Assembly (NCBI GenBank): GCA_964652615.1
Contig: CAZZAT010000001.1
Span: forward strand, 8,070 to 72,069
Reading direction: 5' to 3'
Length of the DNA stretch: 64,000 nucleotides
From: an uncultured Candidatus Saccharibacteria bacterium
GTDB lineage: Bacteria > Patescibacteriota > Minisyncoccia > Phycocordibacterales > Phycocordibacteraceae
Part shown: positions 6,251-54,665 of the stretch, one piece after another
Numbering within the stretch: position 1 is the first letter of the stretch
Layout of the letters: every line of letters starts with the position of its first letter
Made by a program: the position numbers and the translations under genes
Notes under the pieces: model-generated
What the model was told of the DNA's origin: nothing
The model's database searches: none
Seen by the model: only the letters and a program-made list of their open reading frames with translations

Positions 6251-8989
6251 TTAGGAGAGGTAGCGTTCGCGTATTTCTGCCTCAACGGTCTTACGATCCC
6301 TGCCATAGGTGAGGTAGGAAAGCTCGCGAAGATCGTTTACCTGCTCTTGGTTTCCCTTTGGAAGATCTACCGTGCGGATATTGAAGGGCTTTTGCGGCAC
6401 GCCTTCAGCCAGAATGCGCACATACGCATTGCGATTCTCGATATTCACAAAATCAAGCGCTTTGAATGCAGGCGCAAACTGCTTCTCGAAGAATTCGCCG
6501 TCTTCCTCGCCTACACGAAACACTGCCATGGAACCGACGTTGCCGAATACTGCATCGCGTATCTTTTCATCTATCTGCTTCAAGAACTGGTGTGCAATCG
6601 TAAGGGACAGTTTGTATTTACGTGCTTCAGAGAGAATGCCTGGAATGGAATCGGTGGTGATGTTTTGGAACTCATCGATATAGAGGTAGAAGGGCGCAAA
6701 GTTTCCGCGCGGATCATCGGCTCTCGAGAGCGCTGCCATGAAAATCTTGCCTACCATGATAAGACCGAGAAGGTTTGCGTTTCTCTCGCCCAGGCGGCCC
6801 TTGGAGAGATTCACTAAGAGAATCTTCCGGTTATCCATGACGTCGCGGAAGTTAAAGGAGGAATACTGCTGCCCTACGATAGGGCGCATGAAGTCGTTTG
6901 CCGTGAAGTCATCGAACTTGTTCGTGATATAGGGCACGATGTTTTCCAAAGATGCTTCGCCTCCCGCCTGCGTTGCAATCTTTTCCCAGAATTGATTCAC
7001 CACAAGATTATTGCTTCGTGAGAGCTTCATATTGCGAAACGCAGAGTCTGAAAGTACGCGTCCAATATCAAGCATGGTTGAGCCAGAGGCAGGATCTTCC
7101 ATGACGAGAAGCGTTGCGTTGCGGAAGTACTGCTCGAAGGCAGGACCCATGCTTTCAGGCACATCGCCATAGAGTCTGCGGAAAATAGCGAGAAGCTCGT
7201 TCACGATGAACGTCTTTTGTTCAGGACGGTTTTCATCGTACTCAAGCAGGTTTAAACCAAAAGGACGCGAGAGCTCTGCGGGGTCAAAGTAAATGACATC
7301 CTCATAGCGCTCGGGCGGCACCAGAGAGAGCACATCGATAATGTCAGAGCCGTGCGGGTCGATGAAGCACACACCCTCGCCGTTTTTCATATCCTGCTCA
7401 ATCAAGGTCTTCATGAATCCGGTCTTTCCAGTTCCCGTCTGCCCTATCACATACAGGTGCCGCAACCTATCAGCAGGCGATAGGCGCACCGCAGCTTCCT
7501 GCCCGCGAAATGCGTTTCTACCGAGTTGAAGACCCTCTCGCGGAAGTGAGAGCGGGGCTGCCGCTGCGGTAAAACGGGATTGCTTTAGGTGCGGCGAAGA
7601 TACGATACCTTTAGGCGGATAGTGATAGAGGCCCGTAAGCTCTTTCAAGGAAAGTGGCATGCGCGCTTCGTGCGAGAAGAGGCGGTAAGTGAGGTTGTGG
7701 TAAAAGCGCTTTGAGTCTCCTTTCTTGATGCGCTTAAAGCCAACGCGGTTTCCTTTTGTGTTTTCGTACTGATTAAAGGCAGCTTCAAGTTCCCCGATAA
7801 TAGCAGAAGCTCTTCCGGGAGCTGCTGACGAAGCAACAAGGCGGATGTTGGTTTCAACAACCGGAGAAGCCATCTTCTTCTCAACGCCTTCTATTGCCGT
7901 CTGGTCAGGCCCGTAGCTTGATGTCTTCGTATCACCCTTCAATATTGAGCGCGTCTCGTACGCAAAATCAGAGAATAGGTCGTGTGAGATTCTAAACGCT
8001 TCACGCTTTGAGACTCCTTTGCGCAGTTCTTTCAACATTCTGCGGTACGTATTCACATACTTATCCTTTTGCGGCTTGAAGATGATTTGCACGGCAGCAC
8101 CCTCGTCCTCAGGCGCAATCTTTGCAAAAGCATTCAAGAGCGCATTCAAGGGGTCGTATTCGAAGTCTTGGTAGTCCTTCAAGGGCAGCGGATGCGCGCT
8201 CTCAAGCTTTGCAAGGGAGCCTTCATTTTCTCCGTCTTGCACAAAGATGTTGTAGTCGTTTGGAGAGACTTCCATGACCGCATGTGGAAACACGGCGAGC
8301 ACTTGTTTCTCAAAGAGATCTCTGCGGGAGTTTGGTACAGCCGCATAGAAACGAAGCTCTGGTGTATCGACAGGAACGGCAAGCTCAAGCGCAAAGTACG
8401 GCGGTTCTCCGCTGTACGCATCTTCAACAGCAAGCATGCCGCTATAAAACTGCTCCATGGGAGCAACTAATTCTCGAAACGCGCGGCGTATACCTCCCTC
8501 TTCCTCGCTTGCTTTCTCGGGGAGCGCTACTTGATACAACGTCATATGAAGCGACTTCCACTCGGGAGCATTTTCAGCAAGACCTTTGAGTGTCCTTCCG
8601 GTAAGGAGGTAGGCAACAAGATAGCGATGGAAATCGTCTTCTAGGTGCGGGCTCTTTAATTTTTCAAGAACAGAGAATGCGTTATGAATGCCCCGAGCCT
8701 CCATAATGAGGCGAAGCTCTTCCATCGTCTCATCATCGCTTTCAGGATCAAGGTTAAGCGCAAGCTCTCTCGCCTCTGTTTCAGGTATCTGATAGTCAGG
8801 ATGGAGCAATTGACCAGCTGGCGTCTTCACATGCTTCGCAAGGCGCTCGCGTGCAGCTGCTTCAGGAGAAACCGGACGCCGCATGCGTTCAAGTTCGCGC
8901 TCTTTCGCTTCAATTTGTGCGCGCAAATGTGCGAGCTCCGCTTCTGGGGAATCGATAGGCGCTACAGGCCCCTCATACTGCATTTCCAT
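6251..8989 (-). CDS. Large P-loop ATPase (912 aa): VirD4/TraG-like C-terminal half, N-terminal ~450 aa without recognisable homology
   Basis: Walker A VIGQTGTGKTGF; CFIDPHGSD (HerA/VirB4/VirD4-type); Walker B FYLYIDEFQN (DEF as in TraG/VirD4); downstream LSLTIAHQFLKQ (AxQ...Q as in coupling proteins). The N-terminal half matches nothing I recognise. Confidence 0.55.
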   Translation of the reverse strand: MEMQYEGPVAPIDSPEAELAHLRAQIEAKERELERMRRPVSPEAAARERLAKHVKTPAGQLLHPDYQIPETEARELALNLDPESDDETMEELRLIMEARGIHNAFSVLEKLKSPHLEDDFHRYLVAYLLTGRTLKGLAENAPEWKSLHMTLYQVALPEKASEEEGGIRRAFRELVAPMEQFYSGMLAVEDAYSGEPPYFALELAVPVDTPELRFYAAVPNSRRDLFEKQVLAVFPHAVMEVSPNDYNIFVQDGENEGSLAKLESAHPLPLKDYQDFEYDPLNALLNAFAKIAPEDEGAAVQIIFKPQKDKYVNTYRRMLKELRKGVSKREAFRISHDLFSDFAYETRSILKGDTKTSSYGPDQTAIEGVEKKMASPVVETNIRLVASSAAPGRASAIIGELEAAFNQYENTKGNRVGFKRIKKGDSKRFYHNLTYRLFSHEARMPLSLKELTGLYHYPPKGIVSSPHLKQSRFTAAAAPLSLPREGLQLGRNAFRGQEAAVRLSPADRLRHLYVIGQTGTGKTGFMKTLIEQDMKNGEGVCFIDPHGSDIIDVLSLVPPERYEDVIYFDPAELSRPFGLNLLEYDENRPEQKTFIVNELLAIFRRLYGDVPESMGPAFEQYFRNATLLVMEDPASGSTMLDIGRVLSDSAFRNMKLSRSNNLVVNQFWEKIATQAGGEASLENIVPYITNKFDDFTANDFMRPIVGQQYSSFNFRDVMDNRKILLVNLSKGRLGERNANLLGLIMVGKIFMAALSRADDPRGNFAPFYLYIDEFQNITTDSIPGILSEARKYKLSLTIAHQFLKQIDEKIRDAVFGNVGSMAVFRVGEEDGEFFEKQFAPAFKALDFVNIENRNAYVRILAEGVPQKPFNIRTVDLPKGNQEQVNDLRELSYLTYGRDRKTVEAEIRERYLS

Positions 8990-44242: not shown

Positions 44243-44352
44243 AGTTGGGTAAGTGTAGCATACTCCGCTTTTCGCCCGCTTAGCGGGTGCGGCGTTGTAG
44301 TTATTCACAAAAAGAAATACCCGAACATGCGTTTGGGTATTTCTGTTTCGTG

Positions 44353-44425
44353 TCCGCCTGGTAGGGCTCGAACCTACGACCATCTCCTTAAGAGGGAGTT
44401 GCTCTACCAACTGAGCTACAGGCGG
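44353..44425 (-). tRNA. tRNA-Lys (anticodon CUU), unusual C1-G72
   Basis: Reverse complement CCGCCUG-UA-GCUC-AGUUGGUA-GAGC-A-ACUCC-CUCUUAA-GGAGA-UGGUC-GUAGG-UUCGAGC-CCUAC-CAGGCGG-A. There is an A-A mismatch at 27-43. Terminator hairpin plus U-run follows. Confidence 0.55.
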
Positions 44426-47912: not shown

Positions 47913-48458
47913 CTAGGGAGCGGTGAAGAGAATGGAATAATGGTGCGCACCGCCTCGAAAGCCTTTCGCTTTATGGAAACCTGCTCCGATGAAGAGTTCT
48001 TCCGCTGCATGCTCGGAAACAATACGTGCTTCTGAAGGACCTATGCCGCCATAGCAGCCAGCCCAATCAACAACGAGAAGCTTGCCTCCTGAACGCAGCA
48101 CGCGGCGTATCTCATCTATCATTTCCTTCTTACGTTCAATCTGAAACAGAGTGTTTGAGAGAATGACTGCATCAAGAGACTGTTCTTTTAAGGCTGTGCC
48201 TCCGAGCTTTTCAAGATCTCCCCATATCGTCTCAACGTTTTTGAGGCGCAGGTGATGCGCTTCTGCTTTCAGTCTTGTGAGCACGTCTTCTTGCACATCA
48301 ACCGCATATACTCTCCCCTTCTCTCCCACTATCTTTGCAGCTGCAAAAGCATAGTGGCCAGATCCGGCTCCGAAGTCCCCAACCTTCATACCTTCTGCAA
48401 GACCCATTTGAAGAACATTGTCCTGCGGGCTACAGAACCCAGCGGTAGCTTTATTCAT
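47913..48458 (-). CDS. Class I SAM-dependent methyltransferase
   Basis: Motif I VGDFGAGSGHY; acidic motif II VYAVDVQ; post II ILSNTLF. Confidence 0.7.
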   Translation of the reverse strand: MNKATAGFCSPQDNVLQMGLAEGMKVGDFGAGSGHYAFAAAKIVGEKGRVYAVDVQEDVLTRLKAEAHHLRLKNVETIWGDLEKLGGTALKEQSLDAVILSNTLFQIERKKEMIDEIRRVLRSGGKLLVVDWAGCYGGIGPSEARIVSEHAAEELFIGAGFHKAKGFRGGAHHYSILFTAP

Positions 48459-48549
48459 ATGAGTAAAATAGCACGGCGTTCTATAGGCAGTGGTTTGTTA
48501 TCGACATACGCAAACATGGCTTTGAAAGCTTTGACCACAAGGAGTCTCT

Positions 48550-48577
48550 TGCTGGCTGTCTGGGACGATGTTAGAAC
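48550..48577 (+). promoter_or_regulatory. Copy c of recurrent motif (GCTGGCTGTCTGGGACGATGTTAGAACC)
   Basis: About 20-30 nt upstream of the candidate ncRNA. Followed by the perfect hairpin GGGCGGAGTGG-CATAG-CCACTCCGCCC at 48607-48633. Confidence 0.45.
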
Positions 48578-48589
48578 CTTTCTAACTTC

Positions 48590-49035
48590 GGAACCAAAAG
48601 CAGCGGGCGGAGTGGCATAGCCACTCCGCCCTTCCGGCTACAGCTCGGTGTCAATTCCGCGCTTGCCGTTGCCGTACCTTGCTATAGGAACCTCTCTGGT
48701 ATGGAACATTTTTGACAAAGAATCGTGTTGGAGTAGACTCGCCTTCGGTGGTTTAGGCAAACGTTTGTGGTCTGCCGAGGGTTTGACTCCCTCAATGGCC
48801 GTTGTTTTTGGAAGACGGAGACAATCGGGAGTTCGATTCTCCTGAGACGGACTGATAGCTCATCCAGCGTCGCGCAGCCCTGTGCGCCTCACGGCGCACA
48901 TACTAGGTGGGAGACGAAAGTCGCCAATGAGACACCACTCGCGCTGGAAACAAGACTCGGGAGCCTTCGGGTGTGACGGGTCGTCGTAGGTCGCTTAAAC
49001 CACCACCTCGCCACCTCATGATATGAGGTGGTTTT
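48590..49035 (+). ncRNA. Candidate structured non-coding RNA of unknown class (~430 nt)
   Basis: A 680 bp gap with no credible ORF. Bounded by motif copy c upstream and an intrinsic terminator at 49011-49040. Contains a tRNA T-arm-like element GGGAG-UUCGAUU-CUCCU (48829-48846), a cUUCGg tetraloop, and several GC-rich helices. Confidence 0.35.
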
Positions 49036-49040
49036 TGTTT
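49011..49040 (+). terminator. Intrinsic terminator (CCACCTCAT-GATA-ATGAGGTGG then TTTTTGTTT)
   Basis: Perfect 9 bp stem followed by a T-run on the + strand only. Confidence 0.65.
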
Positions 49041-49058
49041 GCATACGATAGTTAGCAA

Positions 49059-49086
49059 GCTGGCTGCCTGGGACGCTGTTGGAACC
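49059..49086 (+). promoter_or_regulatory. Copy d of recurrent motif (GCTGGCTGCCTGGGACGCTGTTGGAACC)
   Basis: About 55 nt upstream of the ATG at 49140; followed by TTTTCACTACATATGCTAGGCT. Confidence 0.45.
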
Positions 49087-49139
49087 TTTTCACTACATAT
49101 GCTAGGCTCTGTCCAGGACAGTAGATGGAGTGAATAGTC

Positions 49140-49597: not shown

Positions 49598-49624
49598 CTG
49601 GCTGTCTGGGACGATTATGGAACA
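49598..49624 (+). promoter_or_regulatory. Copy e of recurrent motif (GCTGGCTGTCTGGGACGATTATGGAAC)
   Basis: Overlaps the stop codon region of the minus-strand HEPN-like gene. It is oriented so that a transcript from it would be antisense to that gene. Confidence 0.4.
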
Positions 49625-50133
49625 TCTTTATCTACGGATTTGGAGCGTAGTTCTGCAATACTTTGAGCTAGCACCTCGTCGGTAATTCCGTACTTCATTC
49701 GCACAGGTTTGAAGAGTTCCTCAAGTAGCGAGTCAGCATAGCGGAATATCTCTGTTATTTCGTCTAACTCGGCAATCATTCTTGCCCTTCCTTCCGATGA
49801 ATTAAAGTAAATGACTCTGTCTCGGAAATAGTGGTGTATAAGCCAATTCCGTTTTTCAAGCGCATAAGATAGGGATTCAGATAGATTTGGCGGTATGGCA
49901 GTTATGTCTTCCAGTATGGAAATCATCTTTCCTAAAGTACGTTTAGATTGTTCTTCCGTATAAGAATCAAAAAGTGCTTCCCATTCTTTTGTTTCTAGAT
50001 TTCCACGCTTTTTCGGTAATAAGTCTAGATAGATAAGCGCACCTATTAACTCTTGTTCAAGGCATTGAGCACCATAAGCAGCGAGACCGAATCTTGCATA
50101 TACCTCTCTGACCTCCTCTTCTTCGGGAGACAT
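49615..50133 (-). CDS. HEPN-motif protein (172 aa), putative
   Basis: All-helical ORF containing EKRNWLIHHYF, which fits the HEPN Rx4-6H motif (R-N-W-L-I-H). No partner nucleotidyltransferase gene is visible. Confidence 0.4.
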   Translation of the reverse strand: MSPEEEEVREVYARFGLAAYGAQCLEQELIGALIYLDLLPKKRGNLETKEWEALFDSYTEEQSKRTLGKMISILEDITAIPPNLSESLSYALEKRNWLIHHYFRDRVIYFNSSEGRARMIAELDEITEIFRYADSLLEELFKPVRMKYGITDEVLAQSIAELRSKSVDKDVP

Positions 50134-53605: not shown

Positions 53606-54027
53606 AGATACTCCGTATTCTAGCAAAAAAGCGCCTTTAACACTATCCCCTTGCACGCATCTATAGAGGTGCGAAAATGCGTGGAGCAGCGACTTGATGT
53701 GAAAGCTCGGTTGCTGTAGGAGTCTGCGCATGACCGCTTTCTCCGCTTCGCCTTAAAGCCATCATCTCCGCTGGAGAAGTTTGATGCCACTTAGGTTTGA
53801 AGTTCGGGCAGTGGGCCCGCCGTATGAAGCCCTTTGGGACCTCGCGCAGCCGCACATCGGAGGCGAAGACATCTGAAAGGGGGTGACGACGGTCTTCTGG
53901 TAACAGGAGCCACGCTGGGCGGCGTCGTGAGGCTTCGAGACTTCACGACTGCCGCCCAGCTTTCTCTTTATATACGGACACGTTTTGGTGTATTGACAAG
54001 TTTTAGGGGGTATGGTAGCTTTGTCCC

Positions 54028-54540
54028 TGACACCCGAAAGGGGTCCCTGTCTGCCCGAGGCCAGCAAAGGCCGGAGGAAGACCAGACAGGTTTTGATGGG
54101 AGAAAACGTATGCGTCAGGAATTGCCGCCGTGAGTGTGATGCGCCTCTCGCAAGAGAAGCTCATTAACTTTCATAAATCCGTCGGCTTCGTCGACATCCA
54201 AACCGCACGCGGCGCCGGCGCCTCGATCTGATCGGGCGCGCGAGCAACGCGAAGTCCCTGCAAGGACGGCTATGACCCATCCATCAAAAGTACCCCGAGG
54301 CTAGCGCAGCCTTTATATCTCAAAAGCGCAGGACCCCCCGGCTGAAAGGCTGGGGGGTTTCGCTTATGCTACTCTTCGAATACCGACTCATGTGAGTCGC
54401 AAACAGGGAGCGCGTCATGCGTAGACTTGACAAAGATGATGTTGGCCGCGAAGTGTGGCCGATCCAAGATCCCCCGCCCCGCTGGTAACTGGGTGCGGGA
54501 AAGTAGAGGGGCGGGAGCATAGGCTCCCGCCCTTTTCTAT
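54028..54540 (+). ncRNA. Candidate structured RNA(s) or long leader in the 900 bp non-coding region upstream of rpsA
   Basis: No credible ORF across 53732-54665. Perfect -35 TTGACA at 53993-53998, with TAGCTT 17 nt downstream. Hairpin CCCCCCGGC-UGAAAG-GCUGGGGGG plus UUU at 54334-54360; strong terminator at 54508-54540. Confidence 0.3.
54508..54540 (+). terminator. Intrinsic terminator (GGGGCGGGAGC-ATAG-GCTCCCGCCC then TTTTCTATTCT)
   Basis: 10 bp perfect GC-rich stem plus T-run, 125 nt upstream of the rpsA ATG. Confidence 0.6.
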
Positions 54541-54665
54541 TCTCCCCTTCTCTGGTATAGTCCTGCCTGTAGCGTTGTGCGGCCGTACGGCAGAATAACC
54601 CTCGATTTCTGGCTGTTGCCAATAAGGGAATCGATACCTGCCAGAATCCCGCTTCGTTTTAAATA

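Follow-up and report, generated by a model that had tools for sequence, protein, structure and literature searches.

The 64,000-nt window analyzed here (positions 8,070 to 72,069 of contig CAZZAT010000001.1, assembly GCA_964652615.1, deposited as an uncultured Candidatus Saccharibacteria bacterium) comes from the core chromosome of a Patescibacterium, one of the Paceibacteria/Parcubacteria type. Its gene products include a short IF2, RbfA, GyrA, S1, ClpB, TopA, UvrB, TGT, SerRS, RelA/SpoT, FtsA/Z, Pth, type IV-secretion-like pilins and seven scattered tRNAs, and a simple gene call from codon usage classes 87% of its length as coding or tRNA. Our subject is the 681-nt non-coding gap at 48459-49139, tied as the second largest gap in the window, which has a methyltransferase (MT) gene on its left flank (47913-48458, minus strand) and a + strand gene for a 132-aa protein on its right; beyond the latter, a gene for a 172-aa all-helical protein lies on the minus strand (49615-50133). 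The bases of the gap show 100% identity among contigs of three sequencing runs (SRR15237817, SRR15237804 and SRR15237806) that evidently sampled one population. From its sequence, we regard the gap as the site of a plausible but unproven orphan non-coding RNA (ncRNA).

The initial annotation had reported a gap of 680 bp without a plausible coding sequence, and the codon statistics agree with it. The three longest frames of the gap have log-likelihoods per codon of -0.36, -0.18 and -0.27, which are typical of off-frame sequence, and the flanking MT, 132-aa and 172-aa genes have values of +0.32, +0.20 and +0.10, respectively. By codon usage, no open reading frame (ORF) in the gap looks coding.

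Boundaries and predicted fold of the candidate RNA

In our best model, the candidate RNA would span ~48747-49040 on the + strand (~290 nt) and be transcribed from a sigma-70-type promoter of its own, TTGACA-16 nt-TAGACT (48712-48739, +), with a 10/12 match. Transcription is predicted to start at ~G48747, 7-8 nt past the -10 box, and this is the first base of P1, the helix that closes the fold. The 5' strand of P1, GGUGGUUUAGGC (48747-48758, +), pairs with its 3' strand, GCUUAAACCACC (48993-49004, +, then ACCUC), through 12 bp including one G-U pair, with a pair probability (P) of 1.00. The intrinsic terminator that had been recognized on the + strand at the end of the region is confirmed: GCCACCUCAU-GAU-AUGAGGUGGU forms a hairpin at 49010-49032 with a pair probability of 0.96, and UUUUGUUU follows as a U run to 49040. 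We placed the RNA on the + strand because the start prediction meets P1, the + fold is the stronger one, and the G-U pairs and T-loops read there only. The core folds at -107.2 kcal/mol on the + strand (z = -2.8), with about 13 G-U pairs, and at -93.6 kcal/mol on the complement (z = -1.9). Besides P1, nine further helices have pair probabilities of 0.78-0.99. A z-score of -4.6 was obtained for 48590-49040 as a whole, and this value is inflated because two terminator-type hairpins are included.

These boundaries are narrower than those of the initial annotation, which had described a single ~430-nt unit with a copy of a repeated motif as its promoter, and had fallen back on a divergent or novel RNA. 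The sequence features it listed are all present and its fallback is the reading we prefer, but the promoter assignment and the single unit were not upheld, and the boundaries move to about 48747-49040 with a separate promoter. The motif copy in question, copy c (GCTGGCTGTCTGGGACGATGTTAGAACCTTT; 48551-48581, +), is indeed present, as an element that marks a boundary or accompanies promoters. Having no usable -10 box, it is unlikely to drive the RNA: unlike copies b and d, it lacks TAnnnT 15-19 nt downstream, the distance seen for other copies. Its promoter role is also doubtful because the following stretch, 48632-48745, is unstructured, folding like its shuffles (z = 0.06), and because the intervening GC-rich hairpin (48605-48631) reads as a terminator on the opposite strand. 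This hairpin is perfect, as had been noted, with 12 bp rather than 11; it lies upstream of the MT gene, is scored as a minus-strand terminator, which is its best reading, and is probably not part of the RNA. In a relative, L138, a AAAAGCAGCG-hairpin at the equivalent position ends a 71-aa gene that is co-directional with the MT gene. A degenerate motif-like stretch with direct repeats (TTGCT..GGAACC..TCTGG..TATGGAACATTTT; 48678-48709, +) lies just upstream of the RNA promoter. Past the terminator, a conserved tail (GCATACGATAGTTAGCAAGCTGGC) is followed by motif copy d (together 49041-49089, +), which carries the 132-aa gene's own promoter, TTGGAA-18-TAGGCT; tail and motif are 83% identical over 48 nt in L138.

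Between the strands of P1, the predicted fold comprises a tRNA-like module, a second domain and a capped hairpin. The module (48762-48849, +) has a weak closing stem around three robust hairpins. Arm A (48769-48800, +) is a 4-bp stem, GGUC/GGCC, around a T-arm-like hairpin, GAGGG-UUUGACU-CCCUC (48777-48793), with pair probabilities of 0.80 and 0.94. Arm B (48801-48825, +) is a 10-bp hairpin with the loop GAAGA (P = 0.91), whose four G-U pairs would become mismatches if read on the minus strand. Arm C (48826-48844, +) is a canonical T arm, CGGGAG-UUCGAUU-CUCCUG (P = 0.93). Domain 2 (48863-48948, +; GC 0.63) is closed by an 8-bp helix (48863-70/48941-48), and its junction holds a hairpin with 8 bp and the loop UCAC (48881-48900), a GAC-GAAA-GUC mini-hairpin (48910-25) and a GAG/CUC helix (48929-40); the four helices have pair probabilities of 0.93, 0.99, 0.98 and 0.90. 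The last hairpin (48954-48982, +; P = 0.79) is capped by a cUUCGg tetraloop. Both this tetraloop (48965-48970) and the GAAAGUC element (48916-48922) are where the initial annotation had suggested.

Relation to tRNA and to known RNA families

The T-stem-loop GGGAG-UUCGAUU-CUCCU, which had drawn attention to the region in the first place, is found at 48827-48843. In 128 kb of both strands, we counted seven T-arm-type hairpins (5-bp stem, loop TTCRANY), five of them in tRNAs, one elsewhere and one here. Because such hairpins are rare and a relaxed second copy (UUUGACU, the hairpin of arm A) occurs 50 nt upstream, the observation is more than chance. A covariance model of 48759-48852 (R1), searched over ~790 kb of Patescibacterial DNA, gave only genuine tRNAs (Gly-GCC, Thr-GGT, Pro, Arg) as non-self matches, aligned end to end with 18-25 bits and E-values of about 1e-5 to 1e-2. 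GAC-AAUCGGGAGUUCGAUUCUCC shares 22 of 24 bases with the variable region and T arm of tRNA-Gly(GCC) of Parcubacteria C7867-007/008, and arm B and the bases downstream of it resemble the anticodon arm of tRNA-Thr(GGU) in an alignment to the tRNA-Thr of L079. The hairpin module derives from a tRNA or converges on one, and we read it as a tRNA-derived part of the larger candidate RNA.

The likeness to tRNA genes and pseudogenes thus covers the T arm, the bases preceding it, the middle arm and the cloverleaf-like layout, but the module differs in having a whole hairpin in its 'D loop' and in sitting inside a larger, helix-closed RNA. The module is not itself a tRNA: there is no 7-nt anticodon loop (the loop of arm B has 5 nt), the closing stem has 5 bp instead of 7, and neither ARAGORN nor the Rfam tRNA model (RF00005) detects the module. 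A 3' tRNA fragment left as an att-site scar was also discarded, since none of the window's tRNAs ends this way at its 3' side.

The size and the T arm had led to the proposal of a transfer-messenger RNA (tmRNA) or RNase P RNA, and neither identity survives. Rfam 15 assigns no family at gathering score, gives nothing for the whole window at E<=1, and in the 1-kb region at E<=10 returns a sole related match, beta_tmRNA, at 8.4 bits (gathering score 84) and to the T-loop alone; ARAGORN reports no tmRNA, standard or permuted. The candidate resembles tmRNA (SsrA, including the two-piece permuted form) in its UUCGAUU T arm, its size of a few hundred nucleotides and its 5'-3' end pairing, but it has no T arm beside a 3' acceptor strand, no tag frame and no series of pseudoknots. 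The initial annotation had already found neither a tag frame nor a matching acceptor 5' strand. A frame ending in GCU-UAA (48993-98) has a UAG two codons upstream, and the T arm lies in the middle of the RNA, 150 nt from the P1 3' strand. The third pair of P1 is U-A and not the hallmark G3:U70, and the 3' tail is ACCU, without CCA. With bacterial RNase P RNA, the candidate shares a multi-helix, P1-closed architecture, and GACGAAAGUCGCC and GGUCGCUUA resemble CR-I and CR-V. The P4 consensus is missing, as first stated: the P4-like strands (48918-25/48989-96; GAAAGUC...GCUUA) give 3 + 2 + 1 pairs with a mismatch, are only ~65 nt apart, overlap and compete with P1, and, unlike those of RNase P RNA, do not enclose a specificity domain. 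The RNase P models of Rfam have no match at E<=10 in the region or at E<=1 in the window.

Another architectural parallel is YrlA (RF02553), a bacterial Y RNA-like RNA that reportedly has a closing end stem and an internal tRNA mimic with a T arm, and is said to be often encoded by accessory elements or phages. Like YrlA, the candidate would be a stand-alone RNA whose ends meet in a long closing stem, with an internal tRNA-like module and a canonical T arm; it differs in being twice as long, in its extra domain and second T-loop hairpin, and in the lack of a Ro-binding bulge in the closing stem. The YrlA model of Rfam has no match at E<=10, and no Ro60/TROVE (rsr) gene was seen among the neighbors and the large window ORFs scanned. 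Two further candidates were dropped. A type III toxin-antitoxin RNA is not indicated because there are no tandem repeats; in addition, the HEPN-like 172-aa gene (described below) is on the opposite strand, ~570 nt off, with a gene in between. GACGAAAGUCGC resembles domain V of group II introns, but it has no helix with the AGC triad and no Rfam match. Literature searches turned up nothing pertinent.

Motif-bounded units and the neighboring genes

Small gene units in these genomes are separated by the ~30-nt motif TTGCTGGCnGTCTGGGACGATGTTGGAACCTTT (motif stretch TTGCTGGCnGTCTGGGACGATGTTGGAACC). The window holds six copies, all on the + strand (1248, 11138, 11496, 48560, 49068 and 49606), and more than 116 stretches of GTDB species representatives, nearly all of them from Patescibacteria (loci L019-L134), contain the motif; its arrays comprise up to seven copies in the same orientation, spaced at a median of 525 bp. 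Across 307 copies drawn from many genomes, TAnnnT boxes are over-represented 15-19 nt rightward of the motif; with such a box, the TTGGAA within the motif acts as the -35 box, and ATG codons lie at +45 to +59. Promoter signals flank the motif on both sides, and cargo genes are found on either strand. The motif marks unit boundaries because homology of the 132-aa unit between the window and L002, its closest relative for this unit, begins inside the motif and stops at ...TTTTATGCTGGC. Taken together, it looks like a lineage-wide regulatory or recombination element. An integron attC site was considered and rejected: GTTRGAA is near GTTRRRY, but the unit boundary in L002 is not at G|TT. The exact motif 21-mer also occurs in alphaproteobacteria (loci L139-L171 and Rhodobacterales matches), once per contig in high-GC, prophage-like contigs; it lies there within conserved coding sequence (…VWDDVGTFDGRPWRG…), and we take this as coincidence.

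The slot between gyrA and the MT gene is variable, holding here the candidate RNA, the 132-aa gene and the 172-aa gene. The gap bears no trace of the 203-aa gene that fills the slot in L001, nor of neighboring cassette proteins, so we rejected it as a remnant of either. The sources of the MT homologues label them Parcubacteria, Paceibacterota or Minisyncoccia. A 20-codon ORF (MFAYVDNKPLPIERRAILLI; 48457-48518, minus strand) precedes the MT gene, its terminal ATGA overlapping the MT start codon, and the MT homologue P0002 has 19 extra N-terminal residues. The 132-aa gene has only three homologues among 5.8 billion proteins. Motif d and the sequence downstream of it are kept upstream of these homologues, which have no such RNA nearby. 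Just past the 132-aa unit in L002 (5000-5045; also in L003), on the opposite strand, there is an isolated T-arm-like hairpin, TTGGG-TTCGAAT-CCTAG, that belongs to no detectable tRNA.

The 172-aa protein carries an invariant R95-N96-x3-H100 (RNxxxH) motif, is confidently modeled (pLDDT 92) and has sub-threshold matches to HepT and DUF4145; we call it HEPN-like and a putative RNase, a fold that Foldseek did not confirm. Its gene is ~570 nt (about 0.6 kb) from the RNA, beyond the 132-aa gene and on the opposite strand. Its relatives are flanked either by hsdS and hsdM or by a type I restriction system on one side and Hachiman (HamA and a helicase) on the other. The PrrC anticodon nuclease likewise sits in type I restriction operons. 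An overlapping 81-aa gene precedes the relatives in the restriction/Hachiman loci and is absent here.

Several other features came to light in the survey. Three more motif-bounded units without an ORF are present in Parcubacteria/Patescibacteria metagenome-assembled genomes, at L088:1147-1520 (-), L052:3643-4036 (-) and L049:4023-4284 (+). The L088 unit combines a TTGACA-17-TAAGGT promoter with ~290 nt of moderately structured sequence and an intrinsic terminator, and in the L052 unit a TTGACA box and a terminator are present, with no clear -10 box; none of the three has an Rfam match or similarity to the window RNA. The largest non-coding gap of the window (53732-54665, 934 nt, GC 0.57) separates a Lactamase_B_3 gene from rpsA, and might contain a further unclassified RNA or else a large leader of rpsA; within it, 54332-54650 is strongly structured on the + strand (z = -5.4), with no Rfam match at E<=1. 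Only some of the window's tRNA genes encode CCA, and tRNA-Lys(CUU) (44352-44425, minus strand) starts with C1 paired to G72 (CCGCCUG.../...CAGGCGG).

Competing readings and possible role

Our favored reading, to which we assign a probability of roughly 45%, is that the gap holds an orphan, strain-specific and structured ncRNA that contains a tRNA-derived module, is transcribed on its own and forms the cargo of a motif-bounded accessory unit. The case is made by the alignment of promoter, helix start and terminator, the intact T arm, the asymmetry between the strands and the absence of coding potential, and not by energy statistics or covariation. Several results weigh against it. The core z-score is -2.7 to -2.8, and four of 59 random 258-nt windows from this genome (which average z = -0.6, sd 1.5) reach -2.7, placing the core in the top ~7% only. 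The stem that closes the cloverleaf (48762-66/48845-49) has 5 bp and is weak (P = 0.28). The promoter is the sole sigma-70-type site in 2.5 kb, for a chance expectation of 1.7; it counts because its position fits the first base of P1. No homologue of the RNA was recovered by blastn against phage records, by exact and degenerate patterns in viral contigs, or by blastn and nhmmer against the 116 motif-bearing Patescibacterial loci. A two-anchor T-loop pattern had 0 matches in the GTDB species representatives, among which the source genome itself is not included, and an R/Y-coded pattern had one chance match, inside a coding sequence, in JGI metagenomes. Over the ~790 kb searched, the covariance model of domain 2 (R2) had no match and R1 found only tRNAs. 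With no homologue found in these collections, the RNA shows no covariation and no sign of selection. In relatives with a 73-75% identical MT, the interval between gyrA and the MT gene (gyrA-X-MT) is filled by a 203-aa gene, by a 103-aa gene, or by several small genes together with an IS30-like gene, and none of these relatives has the RNA; nor is there such an RNA near the homologues of the 172-aa HEPN-like gene.

Many of these observations would also be expected if the gap were non-functional recombination debris, in which decayed tRNA-derived pieces and orphaned terminators lie beside a coincidental promoter and closing helix. The RNA is an orphan, the slot behaves as a recombination hot spot with other cargo and an IS30-like gene in the relatives, the fold and the promoter count are unexceptional, the gap contains a degenerate motif piece and a stranded minus-strand terminator, and the 132-aa unit of L002 has a further T-arm fragment beside it. 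We nevertheless consider debris unlikely, if still the main competitor, given that the genome is compact, promoter, helix start and terminator are aligned to the base, ten helices have high pair probabilities with one strand favored, and the T arm shows an intact, canonical form and no decay. A transcript of the opposite strand, running from a leftward promoter of motif d (TATCGT, 49045-49050) to the terminator at 48631-48605, seems improbable. Motif copies in related arrays do have leftward -10 boxes with leaderless starts, the 12-bp hairpin is a minus-strand terminator, and the tail with the leftward -10 box is conserved in L138; however, the minus-strand fold is 13.6 kcal/mol worse (z = -1.9), the T-loops and G-U pairs are legible on the + strand only, the hairpin is followed, at some distance, by only a short U tract, and the 51-aa ORF of such a transcript looks non-coding, with its ATG abutting the -10 box.

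The orientation of the RNA, and a terminator 100 nt before the ATG of the 132-aa gene, could also suit a cis-acting leader, a riboswitch or attenuator controlling read-through into that gene, and the P1 3' strand can alternatively pair with the terminator 3' strand. This alternative hairpin would not prevent termination, however, because the U tract still follows it. A riboswitch-type leader is quite improbable because motif d, situated past the terminator and ahead of the gene, has its own -35 and -10 boxes, an arrangement conserved in the relatives without the RNA; Rfam has no riboswitch or T-box match either. We give very little credence to a highly divergent housekeeping RNA (tmRNA, RNase P RNA, SRP RNA or 6S RNA). 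The length, the multi-helix architecture, the T arm and the similarity of GAAAGUC...GCUUA to CR-I and CR-V of RNase P RNA would fit, but ARAGORN and Rfam lend no support even at E<=10, tmRNA and RNase P RNA have their elements in a different order, and no tag frame exists; an essential RNA is also unlikely because the syntenic locus of close relatives does without it. A small protein gene or a decayed 132-aa paralogue is about equally hard to credit. One + frame is open for 79 codons, and a 26-residue stretch resembles the 132-aa family with 7.1 bits, a score reached by none of 500 shuffles, but this match becomes marginal once corrected for the ~25 proteins tried, and the nucleotide and protein alignments are in different registers. 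The codons are used as in off-frame sequence, and the longest open frame, searched against 1.84 billion representative proteins, had only repeat-inflated chance matches (G..(F/L)WK).

If the candidate is a genuine structured ncRNA, it might act as a tRNA mimic. The 'elbow' of its T arm could be bound by proteins that recognize tRNA, either modification and processing enzymes or a tRNA-directed nuclease, and domain 2 and the closing helix might give stability or a second binding surface. A role as decoy or inhibitor of the HEPN-like putative RNase is conceivable because the relatives of that protein live in restriction and defense islands. We see it as a long shot that the RNA is the first, so far unique tRNA-mimicking regulatory RNA carried as mobile Patescibacterial cargo, for example as a decoy or antitoxin against the HEPN-like nuclease, or with its two T-loops docking the elbow of a cellular tRNA.

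The genomes of Patescibacteria, a large group that is poorly understood, are tiny and gene-dense, and to our knowledge almost no ncRNAs have been cataloged in them beyond the universal ones. At present, the RNA is a single-genome candidate whose value is that of a lead, and the motif-bounded small-gene units are perhaps the more general finding. If it is real, it would represent a new kind of accessory RNA for Patescibacteria, located in a variable islet with a defense-type RNase candidate, and would offer a handle on how the tRNA pool is regulated or protected in these episymbionts.

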